Positions 4,042-61,935 of a stretch of 64,000 bases of DNA are shown here, in pieces. The notes under the pieces are model-generated. The model searched no databases, was not told the origin of the DNA, and saw only the letters and a program-made list of their open reading frames with translations. This DNA is from Octopus vulgaris (Eukaryota): assembly GCA_951406725.2 (NCBI GenBank), contig OX597827.1, positions 80,600,001 through 80,664,000 of the forward strand, read 5' to 3'. Made by a program: the position numbers and the translations under genes. Position 1 is the stretch's first letter. Every line of letters starts with the position of its first letter.

Positions 4042-6417
4042 TGGGGTAGGTTTTGGTAAAGTTCTCGACTGAACTGAAGATTCATATTTGTTCTGTAGCT
4101 GACCTTCTGCATAACATTCACTCTCTTGGATCTCTCAGAATAGATATTCCGCTTCACCATCTCTTCTGCATTCCTCGACATAGCAACAGAAGTGTTAGTC
4201 TGGTACAACAATTGTTTCATCTCTGCTCTACCTTGGTAGGCTGTATTCTTTGTGGCAGCAGCTGTGTTATCTCTGTGTTTAATACATTTCATAATACACA
4301 GCGTTATAGAAACAACAATAGCCACTGATATTATTACTGCTGATGATACAATGATAATAACCCATGTCATATGGACCCGGCCTGAAGATTGTAAAGGTCC
4401 ACTCTTCGACATTGGTGATGTCTCGTTACTAACAGCCAATACCAAAGTGACACTAGTTGTTGACGACTGAACTGGACTACCACTGTCCTTCACAACAAAC
4501 ACCAGCTCATAATTTCCAGCATCATTTAGATAAACTTGTCTGGAGAAGGATAAAGCACCACTGTGTGAGTTCATACTAAACAACTGTTTATCATTTCCTT
4601 GTATGATTGCATATCTGAGGAAAGCATTGTTTCCACTGTCCCCATCAGACGCTCTCAAAACTGTGATGTCACTCTTACTTCTGCGGATGGTACTGCACAT
4701 TTAGCGTGTAAGGGTCACTACTAGGATATGTAAAATACGGAGCATTGTCATTTTGATCTAGAATCTCAACAACAACATTCGCTGTGTCATTCAGAGATGG
4801 GCTTCCATTATCTTTGACAAAAACCTCAAACTTATACACATCTTGTTTCTCTCTGTCCAATGACATGGTCGCTGAAATGAAGCCATAACTGGTGATGAGA
4901 AATGGGAGATTGGATTTTTCTTTACGCAGCAGAGAATATGTGAGTTGTCCAGCAGATCCAAGATCAGGGTCAGTGGCATTGACAAAACCAATAGGGAAGT
5001 CTTTATCTTTGTTTTCGTAGGTGAGGAATTGGAATGTATCTTTGGTAAACTGTGGTTGTACATCGTTGATGTCAGTCACTTGGATAGAGAGGCTTTTAAC
5101 ACTTTTGAGAGGAGGTAATCCTTTATCTTGACAGGAGACAGGAATGTTATAGTGTCCTTGTGTTTCTCTGTCCACTGGTTTGTTTAGAATGATTTTATAT
5201 TCTTTAGATCCCATTGACTGTAGTTTGAATGTATCATGTTTGATATCACAGCTGACCTCTCCATTTTGTCCCACATCATTGTCAGTGACCATCACATAAG
5301 CAAGGAAACTACCAACTTTGATGTTTTCAGAAATGGTACCTGTGTTGTCACTGATTGCATTAACATAATCAATATCAATAGATGGAGGATTGTTGTGTTG
5401 GTTGATGACATTTACCAAAACGGTTGCAATAGAACTGATTGGGGGATTGCCTCCATCTCTGGCTTCTATAAATAATTCAAAAGTATTTTTTTCATTTAAA
5501 CTAGAAATTCTAGATAAAAATATTTTTCCAGTTTTTTCATCCAATTCGAAATATTTCTTTGCCAAATCAGAAGTTTTGGGGCTGAAATGGAAAGTAATTT
5601 TACTGTTGGATCCAATATCTTTGTCTGTCACTGACAAAGTAAGAATTGGCTTTGTCTTGTCGTGTGTGGTTCTAATTGAAATATTATAAAGGGGTTTTGA
5701 AAATACAGGTGGATTATCATTCTCATCTTCAACAACAATCTCAACATTTAACACACTCTGTTTAGATGGAGAACCTCCATCTTTAGCAATAACTTCTAAA
5801 TTGTATTTTTCTTTTAACTCTCTGTCTAATTTTTCTTTTAAAACAATATTTAACGAGGAAATACCATCAGCTCTTTTAGAAACTGACAAAGAAAATGAGT
5901 CATCAGATTTTTTAAGTTTATATTCAATGAAAGAATTTTGATAACTAACATCTTTGTCTATGGCATTTGGGATTGACTTTTTCATTCCTCTCCCATCACC
6001 TTCCCCAAAATGTAGTGTGATTTGTTTTTTAGGAAACTCTGGTTCGTGGTCATTAATATCTTCTATTACTATTTTGACTTTTAATATTTTTGTGAATGTT
6101 GCCACTTTCTTTATAATAATTTTTATAGTTCTGGAACATTCTTTGTTGAATGTGCAGAGATCTTCTGCATCCAGTGTCTGAGCAGTGTACAGTTTACCTG
6201 TTTTGGTGATGTTAAATAACTGTGCCACCTTTCGTTTGAATTGACTGAATGTTATCAAATGTTGGTCAGATGGTTTAACATTGTCTAAAAGTTTAGAATC
6301 GGCAGCAATGTCTGCTACATATGTTCCTGGACTTCTCTCTTCTTCCACATGGTAGGTAAGGTCTATGGTCAGGACACAGTGGACCAGTGACAATACAATA
6401 GACAATGATAGTAACAT
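4042..6417 (-). CDS. Pcdh: Protocadherin G1 main exon (signal peptide, EC1-6, TM); frameshifts near 4680 (+1) and 4120 (+2)
   Basis: DINDHEP/DENDNPP/DRE/DxD cadherin motifs, EC1 C-x5-C, TM WVIIIVSSAV; CCA|GTAAGT donor; acceptor upstream of 6461. Confidence 0.9.
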
Positions 6418-13424: not shown

Positions 13425-15800
13425 TGGGGTAGGTTTTGGTAAAGTTCTCGACTGAACTGAAGATTCATATTTGTTCTGTAGCTGACCTTCTGCATAACAT
13501 TCACTCTTGGATCTCTCAGAATAGATATTCCGCTTCACCATCTCTTCTGCATTCCTCGACATAGCAACAGAAGTGTTAGTCTGGTACAACAATTGTTTCA
13601 TCTCTGCTCTACCTTGGTAGGCTGTATTCTTTGTGGCAGCAGCTGTGTTATCTCTGTGTTTAATACATTTCATAATACACAGTGTTATAGAAACAACAAT
13701 AGCCACTGATATTATTACTGCTGATGATACAATGATAATAACCCATGTCATATGGACCCGACCTGAAGATTGTAAAGGTCCACTCTTCGACATTGGTGAT
13801 GTCTCGTTACTAACAGCCAATACCAAAGTGACACTAGTTGTTGACGACTGAACTGGACTACCACTGTCCTTCACAACAAACACCAGCTCATAACTTCCAG
13901 CATCATTTAGATAAACTTGTCTGGAGAAGGATAAAGCACCACTGTGTGAGTTCATACTAAACAACTGTTTATCATTTCCTTGTTTGATTGCATATCTGAG
14001 GAAAGCATTGTTTCCACTGTCCCCATCAGAGGCTCTCAAAACTGTGATGTCACTCTTACTCTGTGGATGGTACTGCACATTTAGCGTGTAAGGGTCGTAC
14101 TACTAGGATATGTAAAATACGGAACATTGTCATTTTGATCTAGAATCTCAACAACAACATTCGCTGTGTCATTTAGAGATGGGCTTCCATTGTCTTTGAC
14201 AAAAACCTCAAACTTATACACATCTTGTTTCTCTCTGTCCAATGACATGGTCGCTGAAATGAAGCCATAACTGGTGATGAGAAATGGGAGATTGGATTTT
14301 TCTTTACGCAGCAGAGAATATGTGAGTTGTCCAGCAGATCCAAGATCAGGGTCAGTGGCATTGACAAAACCAATAGGGAAGTCTTTGTCTTTGTTTTCGT
14401 AGGTGAGGAATTGGAATGTATCTTTGGTAAACTGTGGTTGTACATCGTTGATGTCAGTCACTTGGATAGAGAGGCTTTTAACACTTTTAAGAGGAGGTAA
14501 TCCTTTATCTTGACAGGAGACAGGAATGTTATAGTGTCCTTGTGTTTCTCTGTCCACTGGTTTGTTTAGAATGATTTTATATTCTTTAGATCCCATTGAC
14601 TGTAGTTTGAATGTATCATGTTTGATATCACAGCTGACCTCTCCATTTTGTCCCACATCATTGTCAGTGACCATCACATAAGCAATAAAACTACCAACTT
14701 TGATGTTTTCAGAGATGGTAGCTGTGTTGTCATTGATTGCAGAAACATAATCAATATCAATATTTGGGGGATTGTTGTGTTGGTTGACAACATTTACTAA
14801 AACAGTTGCTATAGAACTAAAGGGTGGACTGCCCCCATCTCTGGCTTCTATAAACAATTCATAGGTTTTCTTTTTTCCCAGACTTGAATATTTTCTTAAT
14901 AAAATGCTTCCACTGGTTTCATTCAACTGAAAATAGCTTTTTACAATATCTGATGTCTTTGGGACTGAAATGGAAAGTAATTTTACCATTTTCACCAGCA
15001 ATCAGCATCAGTTACAGATAAAACAATGATGGGTTTGGATTTGTGATGCGTACTTTGTATGGATATATTGTACAGAGGTTTAGAAAACTCTGGTAGGTTG
15101 TCATTTACATCTATTATGGAAATATTTATATTCAAAATCCCTTGTTTTGCTGGTGAACCTCCATCTTTAGCTATGACTTGTAATATATATGTATCTTTGA
15201 TTTCTCGGTCTAATGATTCTTTCAAAACTATATTAAGAAGATATACCATCAGCTCTTTGAGACACTGACAGAGAGAATTTCTCCATTCTTTGATTTTAAT
15301 TTATATTGAATTAATGAATTTTGAAATCCAACATCTTTGTCTATGGCATTTGGTAACGATCTTTTAGCACCTTTACGATCATCTTCACCATATTCTATAT
15401 ACACTGTATTTTTTGGAAATTTAGGTTCATGGTCATTGATATCTTCTATTACTATCTTGATTTTTAATATTTTTGAAACACTGGTTCCTTTATTGACAAC
15501 AACTTTCATAGTTCTGGAACATTCTTTGTTGAAGGTGCAGAGATCTTCTGCATCCAGTGTCTGAGCAGTGTACAGTTTACCTGTTTTGGTGATGTTAAAT
15601 AACTGTGCCACCTTTCGTTTGAATTGACTGAATGTTATCAAATGTTGGTCAGATGGTTTAACATTGTCTAAAAGTTTAGAATCGGCAGCAATGTCTGCTA
15701 CATATGTTCCTGGACTTCTCTCTTCTTCCACGTGGTAGGTAAGGTCTATGGTCAGCACACACTGGACCATTGATAATACAATGGACAATGACAGTAACAT
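13425..15800 (-). CDS. Pcdh: Protocadherin G2 main exon, broken by about five 1-2 nt indels (possible pseudogene or consensus error)
   Basis: Four consecutive ORF pieces align to G4-G6; indels near 15280, 15240, 15000, 14960, 14097; acceptor at 15855. Confidence 0.8.
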
Positions 15801-25157: not shown

Positions 25158-27535
25158 TGGGGTAGGTTTTGGTAAAGTTCTCGACTGAACTGAAGATTCA
25201 TATTTGTTCTGTAGCTGACCTTCTGCATAACATTCACTCTTGGATCTCTCAGAATAGATATTCCGCTTCACCATCTCTTCTGCATTCCTCGACATAGCAA
25301 CAGAAGTGTTAGTCTGGTACAACAATTGTTTCATCTCTGCTCTACCTTGGTAGGCTGTATTCTTTGTGGCAGCAGCTGTGTTATCTCTGTGTTTAATACA
25401 TTTCATAATACACAGCGTTATAGAAACAACAATAGCCACGGATATTATTACTGCTGATGATACAATGATAATAACCCATGTCATATGGACCCGACCTGAA
25501 GATTGTAAAGGTCCACTTTTCGACATTGGTGATGTCTCATTACTAACAGCCAATACCAAAGTGACACTAGTTGTTGACGACTGAACTGGACTACCACTGT
25601 CCTTCACAACAAACACCAGCTCATAACTTCCAGCATCATTTAGATAAACTTGTCTGGAGAAGGATAAAGCACCACTGTGTGAGTTCATACTAAACAACTG
25701 TTTATCATTTCCTTGTATGATTGCATATCTGAGGAAAGCATTGTTTCCACTGTCCCCATCAGAGGCTCTCAAAACTGTGATGTCACTCTTACTCTGCGGA
25801 TGGTACTGCACATTTAGCGTGTAAGGGTCACTACTAGGATATGTAAAATACGGAGCATTGTCATTTTGATCTAGAATCTCAACAACAACATTCGCTGTGT
25901 CATTCAGAGATGGGCTTCCATTATCTTTGACAAAAACCTCAAACTTATACACATCTTGTTTCTCTCTGTCCAATGACATGGTCGCTGAAATGAAGCCATA
26001 ACTGGTGATGAGAAATGGGAGATTGGATTTTTCTTTACGCAGCAGAGAATATGTGAGTTGTCCAGCAGATCCAAGATCAGGGTCAGTGGCATTGACAAAA
26101 CCAATAGGGAAGTCTTTATCTTTGTTTTCGTATAGGTGAGGAATTGGAATGTATCTTTGGTAAACTGTGGTTGTACATCGTTGATGTCAGTCACTTGGAT
26201 AGAGAGGCTTTTAACACTTTTAAGAGGAGGTAATCCTTTATCTTGACAGGAGACAGGAATGTTATAGTGTCCTTGTGTTTCTCTGTCCACTGGTTTGTTT
26301 AGAATGATTTTATATTCTTTAGATCCCATTGACTGTAGTTTGAACGTATCATGTTTGATATCACAGCTGACCTCTCCATTTTGTCCCACATCATTGTCAG
26401 TGACCATCACATAAGCAATGAAACTACCAACTCTGGTATCTTCAGAAATGGTAGCTGTGTTGTCATTGACTGAAGAAACATAATCAATATCAATAGATGG
26501 AGGATTATTGTGTTGATTGATAACATTTACGAGGACTGTAGCTATAGAACTGAGGGGAGGGCTGCCCCCATCTCTGGCTTCTATAAACAATTCGTAGGTT
26601 TTCTTTTTCCCCAAACTTGAATATTCCCTTAACAAAATTTCCCCACTCGTTTCATTTAATTGAAAATAGCTTTTTGCTATATCTGATGTCTTTGGACTGA
26701 AATGGAAAGTAATTTTACCATTTTCACCAGAATCAGCATCTGTCACAGATAAAACAATGATGGGTTTGTCTTTATGATGTGTACTTTGTAAGGATATATT
26801 ATATAAAGGTTTAGAAAATACAGGTGGGTTGTCGTTCAAATCTATTATTGAGATATTTATATTTAAAATACCTTGTTTTGCTGGTGACCCTCCATCTTTA
26901 GCTATGACCTGTAATAAATATGTATCTTTGATTTCTCTGTCCAATGATTCTTTTAAGACTATTTTAAGAGAAGAAATTCCATCAGCTCTTTTAGACACTG
27001 ACAGAGAGAATGGTTCTCCATTCTTTGATTTTAATTTATATTGAATTAATGAATTTTGAAATCCAACATCTTTGTCTATGGCATTCGGTAGTGATACTTT
27101 AGAACCTTTACGATCATTTTCTCCAAATTCTATATACACTATAGTTTTTGGAAACTTAGGTTCATGGTCATTGATATCTTCTATTACAATTTTGATTTTT
27201 AATATCTTTGTAATACTTCTTCCTTTATTGACAACAACTTTCATAGTTCTAGAACATTCTTTGTTGAATGTGCAGAGATCTTCTGCATCCAGTGTCTGAG
27301 CAGTGTACAGTTTACCTGTTTTGGTGATGTTAAATAACTGTGCCACCTTTCGTTTGAATTGACTGAATGTTATCAAATGTTGGTCAGATGGTTTAACATT
27401 GTCTAAAAGTTTAGAATCGGCAGCAATGTCTGCTACATATGTTCCTGGACTTCTCTCTTCTTCCACATGGTAGGTAAGGTCTATGGTCAGGACACAGTGG
27501 ACCACTGACAATACAATAGACAATGACAGTAACAT
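25158..27535 (-). CDS. Pcdh: Protocadherin G3 main exon; single +2 (TA) frameshift near 26131
   Basis: Two ORFs (543 aa and 288 aa) join into the paralog frame if the extra TA is removed; acceptor at 27591. Confidence 0.88.
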
Positions 27536-30860: not shown

Positions 30861-33280
30861 AATTTCTTTATTCACCATAAGGTTGAGAAAAAGAGGGTAC
30901 AATACGGGGACAGACAAAACAAACTTTGGGTCAGGGTATCGAATGAGACGAAACGTATGAATAAACAAACAATTAAAATATATACAATTAAATGAGAATG
31001 AGTGATTAACAAAAAATGAAGCGGAGGACGCGGTTGACCCCACAAACCAACATACTCACACTGAAGACTTTGCTTTCTCCTTTTTTTACATTCTCGATTA
31101 AACAGGTTCTTTCACTCGCAACATATTTGCTATATATTTCCATCTTTTACGAAACACATTTTGCGACAGGCATTTCTTCTCCAGCCTTATTTTCGTTTCA
31201 TGTGGAAAACGAAAAAGTTGATTAGCTCGAGACTGGAGATAAACACTCCTGTTGAAATTCCTTTCACTGTTTGAAGTAATCTTTTCCTTCACAGGGAGCA
31301 TAGACAGTGACCAGCCTGAACACTTTACCACTGCTGTGCGTCACATCCAAAACGACCAACCTGCCTTCTGGATCTATAAAGACAGTTCTAATCTCTAAAT
31401 CCAGGTTTTTTCTGACCAGCACTGCCACTCCTCTGCCCCCTCCTGGTCGACAGGGAGAAACGTATTTCTCGTAGCCGTTTAGAAGGAGCGAAAAAGCCTG
31501 CAGCCCACTCAGTCTGGATTCGGTAATTACAACTACATCCAAACGATGCGACCCAAGGTTGTTAAGGAGGTAGCCTTGCTTCCAATACGACCCCAGGCCG
31601 CAAATATTTAAACAACCGAGTTTAAATGAGAATGTGAAAAATTAGTCGAATGTTTAAAACTTACTGTTTTAACAGGAGAGAGGGTGTAGTTTCACCCTCC
31701 TCTTTTCTGTCTGTGAGTGTTGTGGTTTGCGAAGTCATTTTTTTCGCAAATTGCTTGTACAGATGGCTCGAAAAGTTCAACTGTAACGGGCCGAAATCCT
31801 CCACAAAAGATTTTTTTAGTTCAAAATAGTTGTCTTTGGTATAAAATTCGACATTTTCAAGAATAGTATTATTTACATCTGTTGCGATATATTTTTTCGC
31901 CGATTTCATTAAAACAATTTTGTCTCTTAATAGTTTATTATTTTGTTTATCGCCGTGAAGGTGTTTCTCTTTTTTATATTAGGCGATTGTGGAGGGGGGG
32001 GGTGTGCTTGTGGGTGTGCTTGTAAAAGCATGGGTGTTTGTAGGTGTGTGTGTGTGTGTGTGTGCTTTTTCCAGTGTGTGTGTTTTTTTGGCTACGTGTG
32101 TGTTTGTGACTGTATTTGTGGGTGTGGGTGTGCTTGTCTGTCTCGGAGCATAGTCCTGTGTATCCAAAGAGGGTGGGTTTTTCCGTTTCCGTCTTCTTTT
32201 TGAAGGTTCCACGTTGACCCACTCCTGGATGTTGTTGTTTTCTCCCGCTGTCGGCTGTACTTCGGCAATTGAGGTGTGCGACGTGGCTGCTATTTCTAGT
32301 GGTGTGGTCGTTGTCTTCGGCGGCGTCCTTGCCTCTTCTGCTGCGTTTTCTTTGGCTGTCTTCTTCTTACAGCTCGACCTTATGTAAGGGAACTGGGCAA
32401 TTTTTCTGAGTCTGAGGGATTTGCTTGGATGACAAGCTCTAAATCTCGTCCAAACCAGTTCATGTGGTGGTATCTCTTAGATTAAAGAATAAAAATTTCT
32501 TCTTCTTTGCTATGAGAATAGCAGCTATCACCCAGGCCATATCTATTCCGGGTGGTATATCCGCGACTGTGATTTTTGAAGTCGGCAGGAGAACCACTTC
32601 TTCCAACTTCAATGTCATTGTTGAATGTTCCCTAGCTTTTTCTTCGCTGGGGAAACGCACCTCTACAGTGCCGAAGCGACAACCCTTTGTTATATAACTT
32701 GTTTGTTGCCATATCGGCCTCAAGAATTTTCCTATGGCTTCCCTCGGCACGAAGTCAATTTTCCTATTTTTCACATGATATGTTTTGTATATCACCGTCT
32801 TTCTCTCCGTCGTGTAAATTAATTCACTGGCAGGGAGCAACTTCAAATTATCACCTTTTTTTAGTAAACCTTGGTATTTCTTCAAATCTTCCTTGTTAAT
32901 TACTATATATTCGCAGGGGCGAGTTGCTGCACTCGCAAAATGTATTTTTGACTTTTCCTCTTGTGCCGTAGCCTCGCCAGACATCTTGTCGTCTGCTTTT
33001 GTAACGCGCGCGTGAGACGCCTCTTTACTTTCACCTTCCTCCTCCCACATTTTCGCCTTCATCGCCTTCAAACAAATTTTCAAAGTTTTTCTCCGACTCG
33101 GAATAAATTGGTGGCAAATTCATGCTTTTTGCCGCTTCAAGGGGGAAAGAATGGAAAAAACTCTGCTGCAACAGCAGAAAAGAAGTGGTTTCGACGACCA
33201 AAACAGCAAATTTTCACAATTTTCAGCACAAAAACAATCTTTCAGTGCAGAGCAAAGAATAACACGACCGATCAAAAGAA
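30861..33280 (-). mobile_element. Tx1/L1-clade LINE with both ends present and RT internally deleted
   Basis: ORF1-like 32460-33083 plus partial knuckle HIRSSC; APE endonuclease (CLNICGL, DVVVITESR, GRGVAVL, EGRLVVLDV, VYAP) fused to ORF2 C-terminus (FRKRW); AATAAA at the 3' end; TC-rich flanks. Confidence 0.8.
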
Positions 33281-39209: not shown

Positions 39210-39363
39210 CTGATACTCCTGGTATTTCTTCGTAATGTTTCAGGTCTCCATGTCTACCACTTCTCTTGGATGACATTGTATCTGATGTATAGTTACAAAC
39301 CATAGTAGCATTATCTTCCACAGCATCATCACTTGATGTCACCACAACAGGTTGACAGTATTT
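39210..39363 (-). CDS. Pcdh: G4 cytoplasmic exon
   Basis: 154 nt, CAG acceptor, G|GTAAAT donor. Confidence 0.87.
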
Positions 39364-39535
39364 CTGTTGACAAACAAACGATAAAGAAATGTGAGAAGAC
39401 ACCAAACAATGGAAGTTGACAATCAACATGGATAGAGAACAATTTAATATTGGAATGTATTATTGAAGTTAAAACATATTCAAAGAGATTTCATTGTTCA
39501 CTTTTACAGAGAGAAAATGTAATGTTTCCACTTAC

Positions 39536-41911
39536 TGGGGTAGGTTTTGGTAAAGTTCTTGACTGAACTGAAGATTCATATTTGTTCTGTAGCTGACCTT
39601 CTGCATAACATTCACTCTTGGATCTCTCAGAATAGATATTCCGCTTCACCATCTCTTCTGCATTCCTCGACATAGCAACAGAAGTGTTAGTCTGGTACAA
39701 CAATTGTTTCATCTCTGCTCTACCTTGGTAGGCTGTATTCTTTGTGGCAGCAGCTGTGTTATCTCTGTGTTTAATACATTTCATAATACACAGCGTTATA
39801 GAAACAACAATAGCCACTGATATTATTACTGCTGATGATACAATGATAATAACCCATGTCATATGGACCCGACCTGAAGATTGTAAAGGTCCACTCTTCG
39901 ACATTGGTGATGTCTCGTTACTAACAGCCAATACCAAAGTGACACTAGTTGTTGATGACTGAACTGGACTACCACTGTCCTTCACAACAAACACCAGCTC
40001 ATAACTTCCAGCATCATTTAGATAAACTTGTCTGGAGAAGGATAAAGCACCACTGTGTGAGTTCATACTAAACAACTGTTTATCATTTCCTTGTATGATT
40101 GCATATCTGAGGAAAGCATTGTTTCCACTGTCCCCATCAGAGGCTCTCAAAACTGTGATGTCACTCTTACTCTGCGGATGGTACTGCACATTTAGCGTGT
40201 AAGGGTCACTACTAGGATATGTAAAATACGGAGCATTGTCATTTTGATCTAGAATCTCAACAACAACATTCGCTGTGTCATTCAGAGATGGGCTTCCATT
40301 ATCTTTGACAAAAACCTCAAACTTATACACATCTTGTTTCTCTCTGTCCAATGACATGGTCGCTGAAATGAAGCCATAACTGGTGATGAGAAATGGGAGA
40401 TTGGATTTTTCTTTACGCAGCAGAGAATATGTGAGTTGTCCAGCAGATCCAAGATCAGGGTCAGTGGCATTGACAAAACCAATAGGGAAGTCTTTATCTT
40501 TGTTTTCGTAGGTGAGGAATTGGAATGTATCTTTGGTAAACTGTGGTTGTACATCGTTGATGTCAGTCACTTGGATAGAGAGGCTTTTAACACTTTTAAG
40601 AGGAGGTAATCCTTTATCTTGACAGGAGACAGGAATGTTATAGTGTCCTTGTGTTTCTCTGTCCACTGGTTTGTTTAGAATGATTTTATATTCTTTAGAT
40701 CCCATTGACTGTAGTTTGAATGTATCATGTTTGATATCACAGCTGACCTCTCCATTTTGTCCCACATCATTGTCAGTGACCATCACATAAGCAATGAAAC
40801 TACCAACTTTGATGTTTTCAGAAATGGTAGCTGTGTTGTCATTGATTGCATTAACATAATCAATATCAATAGCTGGAGGATTGTTGTGTTGGTTGATAAC
40901 ATTTACTAGAACTGTTGCTATAGAAATGAGAGGAGGGCTGCCCCCATCTCTGGCCTCTATAAATAGTTCATAGGTTTTCTTTTTCCCAAAATTTGAATAT
41001 TCCCTTAACAGAATATTTCCACTGGTTTCGTTCAATTGAAAATAGCTTTTTGCTATATCTGATGTCTTTGGACTGAAATGGAAAGTAATTTTACCATTTT
41101 CACCAGAATCAGCATCAGTTACAGATAAAACAATGATGGGTTTAGACTTATGATGTGTACTTTGTATGGATATATTATATAAAGGTTTAGAAAACTCTGG
41201 TGGGTTGTCGTTAACATCAATTACAGAAATATTTATATTCAAAATCCCTTGTTTTGCTGGCGACCCTCCATCTTTAGCTATGACTTGTAATAAATATGTA
41301 TCTTTGATTTCTCTGTCTAATGTTTCTTTTAAAACTATCTTAAGAGAAGAAATACCATCAGCTCTTTTAGACACTGACAGAGAGAATGGTTCTCCATTCT
41401 TTGATCGTAATTTATATTGTATTAAGGAGTTTTGAAATCCAACATCTTTGTCTATAGCATTGGGTATTGATCTTTTTGCACCTTTGCGATCATCTTCACT
41501 AAACAGTATATTGACATTTCTCATAGGAAAGTTTGGTTCATGGTCATTGATATCTTCTATTACGATTTTGATTTTTAATATTTTTGAAACACTGGTCCCT
41601 TTATTGACAACAACCTTCATAGTTCTGGAACATTCTTTGTTGAATGTGCAGAGATCTTCTGCATCCAGTGTCTGAGCAGTGTACAGTTTACCTGTTTTGG
41701 TGATGTTAAATAACTGTGCCACCTTTCGTTTGAATTGACTGAATGTTATCAAATGTTGGTCAGATGGTTTAACATTGTCTAAGAGTTTAGAATCGGCAGC
41801 AATGTCTGCTACATATGTTCCTGGACTTCTCTCTTCTTCCACATGGTAGGTGAGGTCTATGGTCAGGACACAGTGGACCATTGATAATACAATAGACAAT
41901 GGCAGGAACAT
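39536..41911 (-). CDS. Pcdh: Protocadherin G4 main exon, intact (792 codons)
   Basis: Uninterrupted ORF with 6 cadherin repeats and TM; donor CCA|GTAAGT; acceptor at 41966. Confidence 0.95.
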
Positions 41912-50776: not shown

Positions 50777-53152
50777 TGGGGTAGGTTTTGGTAAAGTTCT
50801 CGACTGAACTGAAGATTCATATTTGTTCTGTAGCTGACCTTCTGCATAACATTCACTCTTGGATCTCTCAGAATAGATATTCCGCTTCACCATCTCTTCT
50901 GCATTCCTCGACATAGCAACAGAAGTGTTAGTCTGGTACAACAATTGTTTCATCTCTGCTCTACCTTGGTAGGCTGTATTCTTTGTGGCAGCAGCTGTGT
51001 TATCTCTGTGTTTAATACATTTCATAATACACAGCGTTATAGAAACAACAATAGCCACTGATATTATTACTGCTGATGATACAATGATAATAACCCATGT
51101 CATATGGACCCGACCTGAAGATTGTAAAGGTCCACTCTTCGACATTGGTGATGTCTCGTTACTAACAGCCAATACCAAAGTGACACTAGTTGTTGACGAC
51201 TGAACTGGACTACCACTGTCCTTCACAACAAACACCAGCTCATAACTTCCAGCATCATTGAGATAAACTTGTCTGGAGAAGGATAAAGCACCACTGTGTG
51301 AGTTCATACTAAACAACTGTTTATCATTTCCTTGTATGATTGCATATCTGAGGAAAGCATTGTTTCCACTGTCCCCATCAGAGGCTCTCAAAACTGTGAT
51401 GTCACTCTTACTCTGCGGATGGTACTGCACATTTAGCGTGTAAGGGTCACTACTAGGATATGTAAAATACGGAGCATTGTCATTTTGATCTAGAATCTCA
51501 ACAACAACATTCGCTGTGTCATTCAGAGATGGGCTTCCATTATCTTTGACAAAAACCTCAAACTTATACACATCTTGTTTCTCTCTGTCCAATGACATGG
51601 TCGCTGAAATGAAGCCATAACTGGTGATGAGAAATGGGAGATTGGATTTTTCTTTACGCAGCAGAGAATACGTGAGTTGTCCAGCAGATCCAAGATCAGG
51701 GTCAGTGGCATTGACAAAACCAATAGGGAAGTCTTTATCTTTGTTTTCGTAGGTGAGGAATTGGAATGTATCTTTGGTAAACTGTGGTTGTACATCGTTG
51801 ATGTCAGTCACTTGGATAGAGAGGCTTTTAACACTTTTGAGAGGAGGTAATCCTTTATCTTGACAGGAGACAGGAATGTTATAGTGTCCTTGTGTTTCTC
51901 TGTCCACTGGTTTGTTTAGAATGATTTTATATTCCTTGGATCCCATTGACTGTAGTTTGAATGTATCATGTTTGATATCACAGCTGACCTCTCCATTTTG
52001 TCCCACATCATTGTCAGTGACCATCACATAAGCAATGAAACTACCGACTTTAATGTTTTCAGAGATGGTAGCTGTGTTGTCATTGATTGCAGAAACATAA
52101 TCAATATCAATATTTGGGGGATTGTTGTGTTGATTGATAACATTTACCAGAACAGTTGCTATGGAATTGAGAGGTGGAATACCTCCGTCTCTGGCTTCTA
52201 CAAATAATTCATAGGTTTTCTTTTTTCCCAGATTTGAATATTCCCTCAACAGAATATTTCCACTGGTTTTATTTAACTGAAAATAGCTTTTTGCTAGATC
52301 TGATGTCTTTGGACTGAAATGGAAAGTAATTTTGCCATTTTCACCAGAATCAGCATCTGTTACAGATAAAACAATGATGGGTTTGGATTTATGATGTGTA
52401 CTTTGTATGGATATATTATATAAAGGTTTAGAAAATACAGGTGGGTTGTCGTTTAAATCTATTATTGAGATATTTATATTCAAAATACCTTGTTTTGCTG
52501 GTGAACCTCCATCTTTAGCTATGACTTGTAATAAATATGTATCTTTGATTTCTCTGTCTAATGATTCTTTTAAAACTATTTTAAGTGAAGAAATACCATC
52601 AGCTCTTTTAGACACTGACAGAGAGAATGGTTCTCCATTCTTTGATTTTAATTTATATTGAATTAAGGAGTTTTGAAATCCAACATCTTTGTCCATGGCA
52701 TTCGGTATTGATCTTTTTGAACTGATACGGTCATCTTCTCCAAACTGTATATTCACATTCTTTATAGGAAACTCTGGTTCATGGTCATTGATATCTTCTA
52801 TAACAATTTTGATTTTTAATATTTTTGAAACACTGATTCCTTTATTGACAACAACTTTCATAGTTCTAGAACATTCTTTGTTGAATGTGCAGAGATCTTC
52901 TGCATCCAGTGTCTGAGCAGTGTACAGTTTACCTGTTTTGGTGATGTTAAATAACTGTGCCACCTTTCGTTTGAATTGACTGAATGTTATCAAATGTTGG
53001 TCAGATGGTTTAACATTGTCTAAAAGTTTAGAATCGGCAGCAATGTCTGCTACATAGGTTCCTGGACTTCTCTCTTCTTCCACATGGTAGGTAAGGTCTA
53101 TGGTCAGGACACAGTGGACCATTGATAATACAATGGACAATGACAATAACAT
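50777..53152 (-). CDS. Pcdh: Protocadherin G5 main exon, intact (792 codons)
   Basis: Uninterrupted cadherin ORF; acceptor at 53193. Confidence 0.95.
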
Positions 53153-59559: not shown

Positions 59560-61935
59560 TGGGGTAGGTTTTGGTAAAGTTCTCGACTGAACCGAAGATT
59601 CATATTTGTTCTGTAGCTGACCTTCTGCATAACATTCACTCTTGGATCTCTCAGAATAGATATTCCGCTTCACCATCTCTTCTGCATTCCTCGACATAGC
59701 AACAGAAGTGTTAGTCTGGTACAACAATTGTTTCATCTCTGCTCTACCTTGGTAGGCTGTATTCTTTGTGGCAGCAGCTGTGTTATCTCTGTGTTTAATA
59801 CATTTCATAATACACAGCGTTATAGAAACAACAATCGCCACTGATATTATTACTGCTGATGATACAATGATAATAACCCATGTCATATGGACCCGACCTG
59901 AAGATTGTAAAGGTCCACTCTTCGACATTGGTGATGTCTCGTTACTAACAGCCAACACCAAAGTGACACTAGTTGTTGACGACTGAACTGGACTACCACT
60001 GTCCTTCACAACAAACACCAGCTCATAACTTCCAGCATCATTGAGATAAACTTGTCTGGAGAAGGATAAAGCACCACTGTGTGAGTTCATACTAAACAAC
60101 TGTTTATCATTTCCTTGTATGATTGCATATCTGAGGAAAGCATTGTTTCCACTGTCCCCATCAGAGGCTCTCAAAACTGTGATGTCACTCTTACTCTGCG
60201 GATGGTACTGCACATTTAGCGTGTAAGGGTCACTACTAGGATATGTAAAATACGGAGCATTGTCATTTTGATCTAGAATCTCAACAACAACATTCGCTGT
60301 GTCATTCAGAGATGGGCTTCCATTGTCTTTGACAAAAACCTCAAACTTATACACATCTTGTTTCTCTCTGTCCAATGACATGGTCGCTGAAATGAAGCCA
60401 TAACTGGTGATGAGAAATGGGAGATTGGATTTTTCTTTACGCAGCAGAGAATATGTGAGTTGTCCAGCAGATCCAAGATCAGGGTCAGTGGCATTGACAA
60501 AACCAATAGGGAAGTCTTTATCTTTGTTTTCGTAGGTGAGGAATTGGAATGTATCTTTGGTAAACTGTGGTTGTACATCGTTGATGTCAGTCACTTGGAT
60601 AGAGAGGCTTTTAACACTTTTAAGAGGAGGTAATCCTTTATCTTGACAGGAGACAGGAATGTTATAGTGTCCTTGTGTTTCTCTGTCCACTGGTTTGTTT
60701 AGAATGATTTTATATTCCTTGGATCCCATTGACTGTAGTTTGAATGTATCATGTTTGATATCACAGCTGACCTCTCCATTTTGTCCCACATCATTGTCAG
60801 TGACCATCACATAAGCAATGAAACTACCAACTTTGATGTTTTCAGAGATGGTAGCTGTGTTGTCATTGATTGCAGAAACATAATCAATATCAATAGATGG
60901 AGGATTGTTGTGTTGGTTGATAACATTTACTAAAACAGTTGCTATAGAAATGAGAGGAGGGCTGCCCCCATCTCTAGCCGCAACAAATAGTTCATATGCT
61001 TTCTTTTTTCCCAGACTTGAATATTCCCTTAATAAAATGCTTCCACTGGTTTCATTTAATTGAAAATAACTTTTTGCTATATCTGATGTCTTTGGACTGA
61101 AATGGAAAGTAATTTTACCATTTTCACCAGAATCAGCATCAGTCACAGATAAAACAATGATGGGTTTAGATTTGTGATGCGTACTTTGTATGGATATATT
61201 ATATAAAGGTTTAGAAAACTCTGGTGGGTTGTCATTCACATCTATTATAGAAATATTTATGTTTAAAATACCTTGTTTTGCTGGTGACCCTCCATCTTTA
61301 GCTATGACTTGTAATAAATATGTATCTTTGATTTCTCTGTCTAATGATTCTTTTAAAACTATTTTAAGAGAAGAAATACCATCAGCTCTTTTAGACACTG
61401 ACAGAGAGAATGGTTCTCCATTCTTTGATTTTAATTTATATTGTATTAATGAGTTTTGAAATCCAACATCTTTATCTATGGCATTTGGTAGTGATACTTT
61501 AGAACCTTTACTATCATTTTCATCAAACTGTATGTTAACATTCTTTATAGGAAACTCAGGGTGATGGTCATTAATATCTTCTATTACTATTTTGATTTTT
61601 AATATTTTTGAAACACTGGTTCCTTTATTGACAACAACTTTCATAGTTCTGGAACATTCTTTGTTGAATGTGCAGAGATCTTCTGCATCCAGTGTCTGAG
61701 CAGTGTACAGTTTACCTGTTTTGGTGATGTTAAATAACTGTGCCACCTTTCGTTTGAATTGACTGAATGTTATCAAATGTTGGTCAGATGGTTTAACATT
61801 GTCTAAAAGTTTAGAATCGGCAGCAATGTCTGCTACATATGTTCCTGGACTTCTCTCTTCTTCCACATGGTAGGTAAGGTCTATGGTCAGGACACACTGG
61901 ACCAGTGACAATACAACAGACAATGACAGTAACAT
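59560..61935 (-). CDS. Pcdh: Protocadherin G6 main exon, intact (792 codons)
   Basis: Uninterrupted cadherin ORF; probable acceptor at 61991; leader exon presumably beyond the window. Confidence 0.95.

Follow-up and report, generated by a model that had tools for sequence, protein, structure and literature searches.

The segment at codons 125–149 of the octopus protocadherin gene G4 (41465–41539, minus strand) is, in the reading that we consider probable, the patch with the highest variability in an array of 28 copies, composed of old modules recombined by short exchanges and likely situated where the two chains of an antiparallel EC1–EC4 dimer meet, a place at which each new combination would tune partner choice. 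The segment spans the end of the EC1-2 linker, strands A and A' of EC2, the A'-B loop and strand B. These strands were assigned from an AlphaFold model, in which A/A' extends to residue 138 and is followed by the A'-B loop and by strand B at residues 146–149.

The gene array and its variable segment

The 64-kb window (the whole stretch of DNA that was analysed) contains six protocadherin genes, G1–G6, on the minus strand at a spacing of about 10 kb, with ATG start codons at 6417, 15800, 27535, 41911, 53152 and 61935, respectively. The open reading frame of G4 (39491–41911, minus strand) has 806 codons, and 41465–41539 corresponds exactly to codons 125–149. G4 has a second coding exon of its own at 39211–39363 (minus strand), and one such exon is present in each of the six genes, so that the layout of the vertebrate clusters, with variable exons joined to shared constant exons, is not seen here. 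The protein contains five Pfam Cadherin domains plus Cadherin_2 (EC1) at residues 20–103, its best sequence and fold matches are protocadherin EC1–4 structures, and the AlphaFold model of EC1–4 has a pLDDT of 87. Among named proteins, the nearest belong to Octopus vulgaris (96%), O. sinensis and Argonauta hians (79–87%). The genes belong to a cephalopod cluster of whole-gene tandem copies with octopod proteins as closest relatives, in which at least 28 copies lie on one strand over 290 kb (C14:80.38–80.67 Mb in G000; the genome search scored 40 of 155 candidates, and the look-up of the cluster covered 15 of its 24 members). The analysis covered the six window genes and 22 further copies, with one degraded copy (L036) left out throughout. 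Two EC2-EC3 types are present among the 28 copies, type A in 22 and type B in six, the latter including G1 and the edge gene L022.

Some further features of the locus can be recorded here. Both EC2-EC3 lineages occur in Octopus and Argonauta behind a species-specific frame (type B in G1 and L018–L021, and in Argonauta P0009–P0011 and P0148–P0150). The edge gene L022 (G000:C14:80381266) carries a distinct EC1 that is kept in three species (P0144_6, P0013), resembling a C-type outlier at an array end, and protocadherin fragments consisting of constant-region pieces (L027, L028, L034) occur at either end of the subcluster. An unrelated 200-residue open reading frame (32460–33062, minus strand) with no Pfam match at E ≤ 0.1, probably a repeat element, lies in the GC-richer stretch that separates G3 from G4.

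The segments equivalent to that of G4 lie, all on the minus strand, at 5971–6045 in G1 (a frameshifted gene of the type B EC2-EC3 lineage), 15354–15428 in G2 (a gene with five small indels), 27089–27163 in G3 (frameshifted near codon 468), 52706–52780 in G5 and 61489–61563 in G6. An initial annotation of this DNA had described residues 125–149 as different in every paralogue and mosaic in composition. All six window genes and all 28 genes of the subcluster indeed carry distinct segments, and each of the shared peptides that it quoted is present: PEFPIKNVNIQF in G6 and G5, KGSKVSLPNA in G6 and G3, PKFPK..VYIE in G2 and G3, and DDRKGAKRS in G2 and G4. The 23-mer quoted as identical in G3 and G6 is found at 27088–27110 and 61488–61510, respectively (0 of 100 shuffles), with one further occurrence outside the window in L016, the copy that is also the closest donor of the G6 segment (57 nt identical). 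The G6/G5 and G2/G4 matches hold for the peptides but not for the DNA, which has three silent differences in each case, so that these exchanges are old or indirect. By contrast, EC1 residues 18–96 have a single form in the six window genes and three forms in the 28 copies.

The type A segment has a piS of 0.48, a piN of 0.26 and a pN/pS of 0.55 (CI 0.39–0.74), and its silent diversity of 0.48 compares with 0.03 in the region from EC5 to the tail and 0.05 in EC1 strands A–E. The latter strands (41624–41860, minus strand) are homogenised across copies (piS 0.05 and piN 0.0005 in type A), as are the rest of EC4, EC5, EC6 and the transmembrane and cytoplasmic part (39536–40795, minus strand; piS 0.03), which are species-specific. 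Within each species EC1 A–E and EC4-to-tail are therefore homogenised and the region from the EC1 FG hairpin to EC4 strand A retains deep diversity, a layout of the vertebrate type, with EC2-EC3 diverse and EC1 and EC4–6 homogenised. The initial annotation had placed a second hotspot in the EC3 FG loop (codons 322–332; 40916–40948, minus strand). The loop sequences that it listed (NPPISS, SPPFSS, SPPLSS, SPPLIS, IPPLNS and SPPLIS) were all found and the loop is variable, with 11 forms in the 28 copies, but the variation is modest (piN 0.07). Two regions that it did not name vary more, namely the dimorphic EC1 FG hairpin (codons 98–114; 41570–41620, minus strand), with the two old forms VVNKG.. 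and IIKK..FT, and a patch in the D-E-EF region of EC3 (codons 292–312; 40976–41038, minus strand) that is outside the vertebrate interface list.

The EC3 292–312 patch is the second most variable (pi of 0.26 in Octopus and 0.40 in Argonauta) and adjoins a degenerate EC3-4 linker. In G4 this linker (40877–40894, minus strand) reads NQHNNP in place of DxNDNxP. Neither DxNDN at this position nor the EC3 DRE/DYE motif occurs in any of the 140 rows of alignment A1, and the EC2-3 linker aspartates are canonical in all 140; canonical calcium motifs are thus not present at every EC linker. A family-wide calcium-poor EC3-4 hinge, as these sequences suggest, could bend the dimer. Across the type A coding exon, GC3 ranges from 0.19–0.28 in the variable part to 0.34–0.38 in the homogenised domains, as GC-biased conversion would give; variation extends to the signal peptide as well (piS 0.21, GC3 0.63).

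Long-range couplings and the dimer interface

The assessment of residue coupling was confined to the 22 type A genes; in all 28 genes the type A/B split dominates long-range r2, and block pairs with r2 above 0.6 number 293 of 12137 in the full set and five of 4658 in type A. Three of these five pairs join the EC1 FG hairpin to EC4 residues 358/361, one joins 191 to 328 and one joins 145 to 244. In the EC4 A-strand loop (codons 354–361; 40829–40852, minus strand), Y358/G361 occur together with the EC1 FG loop form that carries F108. The F108–G361 association holds in 26 of the 28 copies, in 12 of 13 O. sinensis proteins and in all 16 Argonauta type A genes (only two of which carry F108/G361), but in five of seven Argonauta type B genes F108 is paired with A361. 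EC4 A variants cluster by array position (Mantel p = 0.002), and descent may for this reason add to the EC1-EC4 coupling. In case of codon 191 (K/N, EC2 strand E; 41339–41341, minus strand), all 28 copies have either K191 with L328 or N191 with F/I328, and the same pairing is seen in 22 of 23 Argonauta sequences (p = 1e-5, tested after its discovery in Octopus) and in 11 of 13 from O. sinensis (p = 0.11; the O. sinensis counts leave out the duplicates P0128 and P0144_4). N191 is encoded by both AAT and AAC and stands between flanks of either type, A as well as B, which favours coupling at the protein level over descent. Neutral simulations gave one pair with r2 ≥ 0.8 in 98 of 1474 runs and two such pairs in four. 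In a second subfamily of 15 proteins, of mixed species and with descent uncontrolled, 106 × 366 and 106 × 368 rank highest among 5658 pairs, the latter a charge swap (K106–E368 in eight proteins and E106–K368 in seven); mutual information in three further subfamilies (30, 13 and 11 sequences) is confounded by species and descent.

Judging from cadherin topology, neither coupled pair should be able to touch within one extended chain, and both fit the antiparallel EC1–4 dimer of vertebrate protocadherins. The contacts of that dimer, as given in the legend to Fig. 5C of PMC5115871, include the EC1 FG loop and, in EC2, the A-B loop with strand B, the D-E loop and strand E at its start; the same source adds the EC2-3 linker, the EC3 C-D and F-G elements and the EC4 A loop. 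By homology the patch would lie on the EC2:EC3 elements of this interface, as the initial annotation had proposed, and would include residues known to switch or break binding. Position 140 is equivalent by range alignment to gamma-A8 I116, the site of the I116R mutant, and to residue 117 of beta6/beta8 (S117 in beta6), described as one of five specificity-switching residues. L328 aligns with L301 of alpha7, and the L301R mutant, as the cited account has it, was made to break the trans dimer (PMC8901172). Positions 136 and 325 match gamma-B7 111 and 294, and codon 233 in the EC2-3 linker (V/L/E/I/D; 41213–41215, minus strand) is the range-alignment counterpart of gamma-A residue 206, which contacts itself (PMC5106212, section 10). 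Gamma-B3 Y161:K302, as reported in bioRxiv 493106, matches 189:333, one step from 191:328. The gamma-A8, gamma-B7 and gamma-B3 equivalences are based on alignment end points rather than on printed alignments.

The agreement between variable residues and interface is partial. Interface positions are more diverse than others in type A Octopus copies (0.161 vs 0.068, shift p = 0.011), but in Argonauta this enrichment does not reach significance (p = 0.19), and of the 45 highly variable sites 24 fall outside the interface set, including 130–133, 136 and EC3 292–307. Prediction of the G4 EC1–4 homodimer, in which the alignment was not used, returned a score of 0.00 twice and says nothing for or against the dimer. 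Covariation, for which the initial annotation had suggested a test, is absent between the patch and the EC3 FG loop or any other site: no site in 125–149 has a covarying partner that stands out (best z 4.8, 99th percentile), and the vertebrate-equivalent pair 136:325 (gamma-B7 111:294) shows no coupling. The covariation that was found lies elsewhere, between EC1 FG and EC4 and between EC2 191 and EC3 328, and these two couplings have outlasted the otherwise free exchange between copies. A patch with no partner and an uncoupled 136:325 pair argue against strict lock-and-key shuffling, which should need matching EC3 changes.

A patch with no covarying partner would also be found if, in the same dimer, a coarse set of recognition classes were determined by the two coupled pairs and the type A/B split, and the A'-B patch were a tolerant surface shuffled with little effect on partner choice. 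We hold this to be rather unlikely. It agrees with a pN/pS of 0.55 and the absence of an omega > 1 class, and with the position of A' residues 130–133 outside the listed interface. A neutral patch would, however, be expected to homogenise like the region from EC5 to the tail, yet the segment has 15-fold more silent diversity and shares loop words between two genera. Position 140, moreover, would correspond by range alignment to the beta6/beta8 117 specificity switch and the gamma-A8 I116R site, and the A-B segments of EC1 and EC5, which are the equivalents of the EC2 patch, are nearly invariant.

Age, selection and exchange between copies

The age of the modules was assessed from 27 Octopus and 22 Argonauta copies, with L022 and P0013 left out of the Fst table. 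In EC5, EC6 and the tail, Fst between the genera is 0.91–0.96, there are 8, 12 and 17 near-fixed differences, respectively (37 in total), and all 22 Argonauta genes are nearest to another Argonauta gene. In the module formed by the A'-B loop and strand B (codons 138–149; 41465–41500, minus strand), which is common to both genera, Fst is −0.01, 13 of the 22 Argonauta genes are nearer to an Octopus gene (with six ties), and six nine-residue words at 139–147 are found in both. No word of the A' strand module (codons 130–137; 41501–41524, minus strand) was found to be common to Octopus and Argonauta copies, so the A' module turns over faster. The split between the genera was calibrated at 29 Ma or older in the dating given in PMC12682272. 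The loop modules and the A/B types predate this split, and the patch is old, not fast-evolving. In each species the constant domains probably acquired new residues through sweeps of conversion, and the loop variants persisted, presumably protected by selection.

Site-wise positive selection, another test that the initial annotation had suggested, was not found in the patch. With a codon site model implemented in our own code, which is uncalibrated and uses trees from the same short blocks, there is no omega > 1 class in 125–149 (M2a vs M1a 2dL = 0.0 over 25 codons, with 89% of sites at omega 0.20), and the eight variable blocks likewise give no significant omega > 1 class on the EC2-EC3 surface (2dL 2.94). 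Codon 233 is the only site with a posterior above 0.5 for omega > 1, within an overall test that is not significant.

Balancing selection on a surface whose binding partner is not the isoform itself but a different protocadherin, a cis partner or some pathogen would also give sharing of variants across genera and no coupling of the patch within the gene, and it would suit the second variable patch at EC3 292–312, which lies off the vertebrate interface. We consider such a partner improbable: arms races usually give omega > 1 and none was found, the two couplings point to self-pairing, and the patch aligns with homophilic contact elements.

Errors of assembly or polishing in a near-identical repeat could in principle produce both the mosaic and the homogenised domains, and 1–2 nt frameshifts are present in six of the 28 copies (G1, G2, G3, L008, L002 and L011), several of them within short repeats; these copies are either pseudogenes or assembly errors. 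This explanation is largely refuted and we regard it as very improbable, since the same segments occur in proteins from the assemblies of other species. Three of 12 O. sinensis segments are identical at 125–149 to those of G000 copies (P0125 to L004, P0133 to L015 and P0144_2 to L021), as is P0037 of O. bimaculoides to L001, and Argonauta has the same variability profile (entropy rho 0.56). An exact 215-nt EC1 contig was also recovered from runs X2, X4 and X15 of three studies, with a depth of 330 in X2 vs 7–13 for several short exact pieces, where depth is not copy number. An X2 contig of 114 nt spans the whole segment of G4 with two differences (X2 may or may not be connected with the sample that was assembled). 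The contigs from X1, X4 and X12 miss the middle of the G4 segment and those of X8 and X15 the middle of the G6 segment; contigs cannot show absence, and these gaps are therefore no evidence for differences between individuals.

The segment is mosaic beyond chance, with PHI p values of 0.001–0.002 in the 22 type A genes and 0.011–0.015 in the six window genes. Silent sites give p = 0.0005 for codons 97–372 (81 sites) and 0.007 for codons 120–160 (10 sites). Two trees improve on one by 90.8 lnL, compared with at most 55.5 in 60 codon permutations (0 of 60 reach the observed value), and the gain is highest for a cut after codon 137, where the A' strand gives way to the A'-B loop. Clean recombinants are present: L002 has 46 nt identical to L008 followed by 55 nt identical to L001, and L016 has 45 nt in common with L014 and 57 nt in common with G6. 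Linkage falls from an r2 of 0.23 at 1–9 nt to a background of 0.05 beyond 60 nt, a decay that is bracketed by neutral simulations in which tracts averaged 30 and 60 nt and fits an exchange tract length of about 30–60 nt. Site incompatibility grows with distance, from 0.37 at 1–3 nt to about 0.8 beyond 50 nt. Similarity between segments bears no relation to gene order (Mantel p = 0.87). A GENECONV-like scan marked 37 of 231 pairs at p < 0.01, a count that is uncorrected and inflated by uneven diversity, and for this reason the verdict on recombination rests on PHI and the tree test. Some O. sinensis proteins have combinations absent from the 28 copies, such as P0121, in which the A' strand of G5/G6 is combined with the loop of L001 (chimeric gene models are possible). 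Short-tract exchange, as the initial annotation had put forward, is thus borne out by PHI, also on silent sites alone, by the two-tree test, by exact recombinants and by tract simulations. That repeated mutation of tolerant sites along a single gene tree mimics the patchwork is scarcely credible: the lack of DNA identity in the G6/G5 and G2/G4 matches and a non-significant PHI over the whole of EC2 in all 28 genes with types A and B pooled (p = 0.66) would suit it, but it is refuted for type A genes by the two-tree test and silent-site PHI, and the distance-dependent incompatibility and the 46 + 55 nt exact recombinants also contradict it.

In the reading that we favour, of old modules recombined on a dimer face, the proteins would most likely pair head-to-tail through EC1–4 as the vertebrate ones do, and the exchanges between copies would represent gene conversion, which would keep the frame identical across copies and re-deal the old modules. 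Selection would weed out tracts by which EC1 FG no longer suits EC4 A, or EC2 E no longer suits EC3 G, since the matched elements would touch across the dimer, and selection for distinct identities would keep the A'-B patch from homogenisation. New combinations of A' and A'-B modules would then change binding.

Relation to known systems and significance

In the vertebrate clustered protocadherins (alpha, beta and gamma), as described in the sections cited, conversion homogenises EC1 and EC4–6, and EC2-EC3 are diverse and carry specificity in an antiparallel EC1–4 trans dimer (PMC4978886, PMC5001838, PMC5106212, PMC8901172). The octopus genes resemble them in having six EC domains in one large exon and a tandem head-to-tail array, in having the highest dS in EC2-EC3 and the lowest in EC5-EC6, in the placement of variation on EC1 FG, EC2 A-B, EC3 FG and EC4 A, and in correlated residue pairs across EC1:EC4 and EC2:EC3. 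They differ in that the octopus expansion is independent and proceeded by whole-gene duplication, by the account in PMC9068888, with a second exon for each gene. A further difference concerns EC2 and EC3, which in vertebrates appear not to be subject to conversion, according to the part of PMC4978886 cited; in octopus, EC2-EC3 undergo shuffling of tracts that are tens of bases long, as PHI and tract tests inside both domains indicate. The octopus patch, unlike those of vertebrate clusters, has no omega > 1 class, and the EC3-4 linker is without calcium motifs in 140 of 140 rows.

Alleles of the MHC and of self-incompatibility systems combine micro-conversion with trans-species polymorphism. 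The octopus array is like them in having old motifs across species and short-tract recombination inside a recognition surface, and unlike them in that its units are paralogues of a presumed homophilic adhesion protein with no omega > 1.

The studied subcluster is one of the protocadherin sub-arrays of 27–34 genes on octopus chromosome 14, for which duplication with homogenisation by gene conversion has been suggested (PMC9068888, PMC6339937, PMC9795677, in the passages cited). Gene conversion in cephalopod protocadherins is thus already suggested in print (PMC9068888 and PMC6339937, in those same passages). PMC9068888, in the portion cited, also reports a second exon for each cephalopod gene and explicitly makes no functional claim, and PMC10084454 mentions clustering and exon layout only. 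The cited portions of PMC9068888, PMC6339937 and PMC9795677 contain no domain-level profile, mosaic patch, cross-genus modules or interface covariation for the chromosome 14 arrays. A search of publications outside their supplements found none that treats how cephalopod protocadherins bind, or their covariation, cross-genus modules or shuffling below the domain level, and Albertin 2015 and Wang and Ragsdale 2017 may describe domain-level identity. Dating of arrays by pairwise distances can mistake homogenisation for recent duplication. The duplication burst at 8–14 Ma that PMC9795677, in its cited part, derives from such distances may partly reflect homogenisation, provided that the studied subcluster belongs to that peak.

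A more far-reaching reading, which we offer tentatively and with more doubt than conviction, is a cassette-type neuronal recognition code, in which a fixed library, its micro-modules more than 29 million years old, would be continually re-dealt by germline conversion among about 28 otherwise identical genes. The library would comprise the EC1 FG/EC4 A pair, the EC2 A' strand, the EC2 A'-B loop and the EC2 E/EC3 G pair. New homophilic specificities would arise by recombination, not by point mutation, and barcode sets would differ between sister species and perhaps between individuals.

The couplings define exact double swaps, at 191/328 and of EC1 FG with 358/361, and the natural recombinants (L002 with L008 and L001, and G6 with L016) provide ready-made candidate specificity chimeras. 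The EC1–4 dimer has been argued to be ancestral (PMC5001838, in the part cited), so its presence in octopus would be expected rather than surprising. By analogy with the vertebrate protocadherins, the patch likely helps to give each protein its own binding identity within a head-to-tail pair like theirs, and the sequences of the paralogues point indirectly to the same antiparallel EC1–4 dimer in an independently expanded family.
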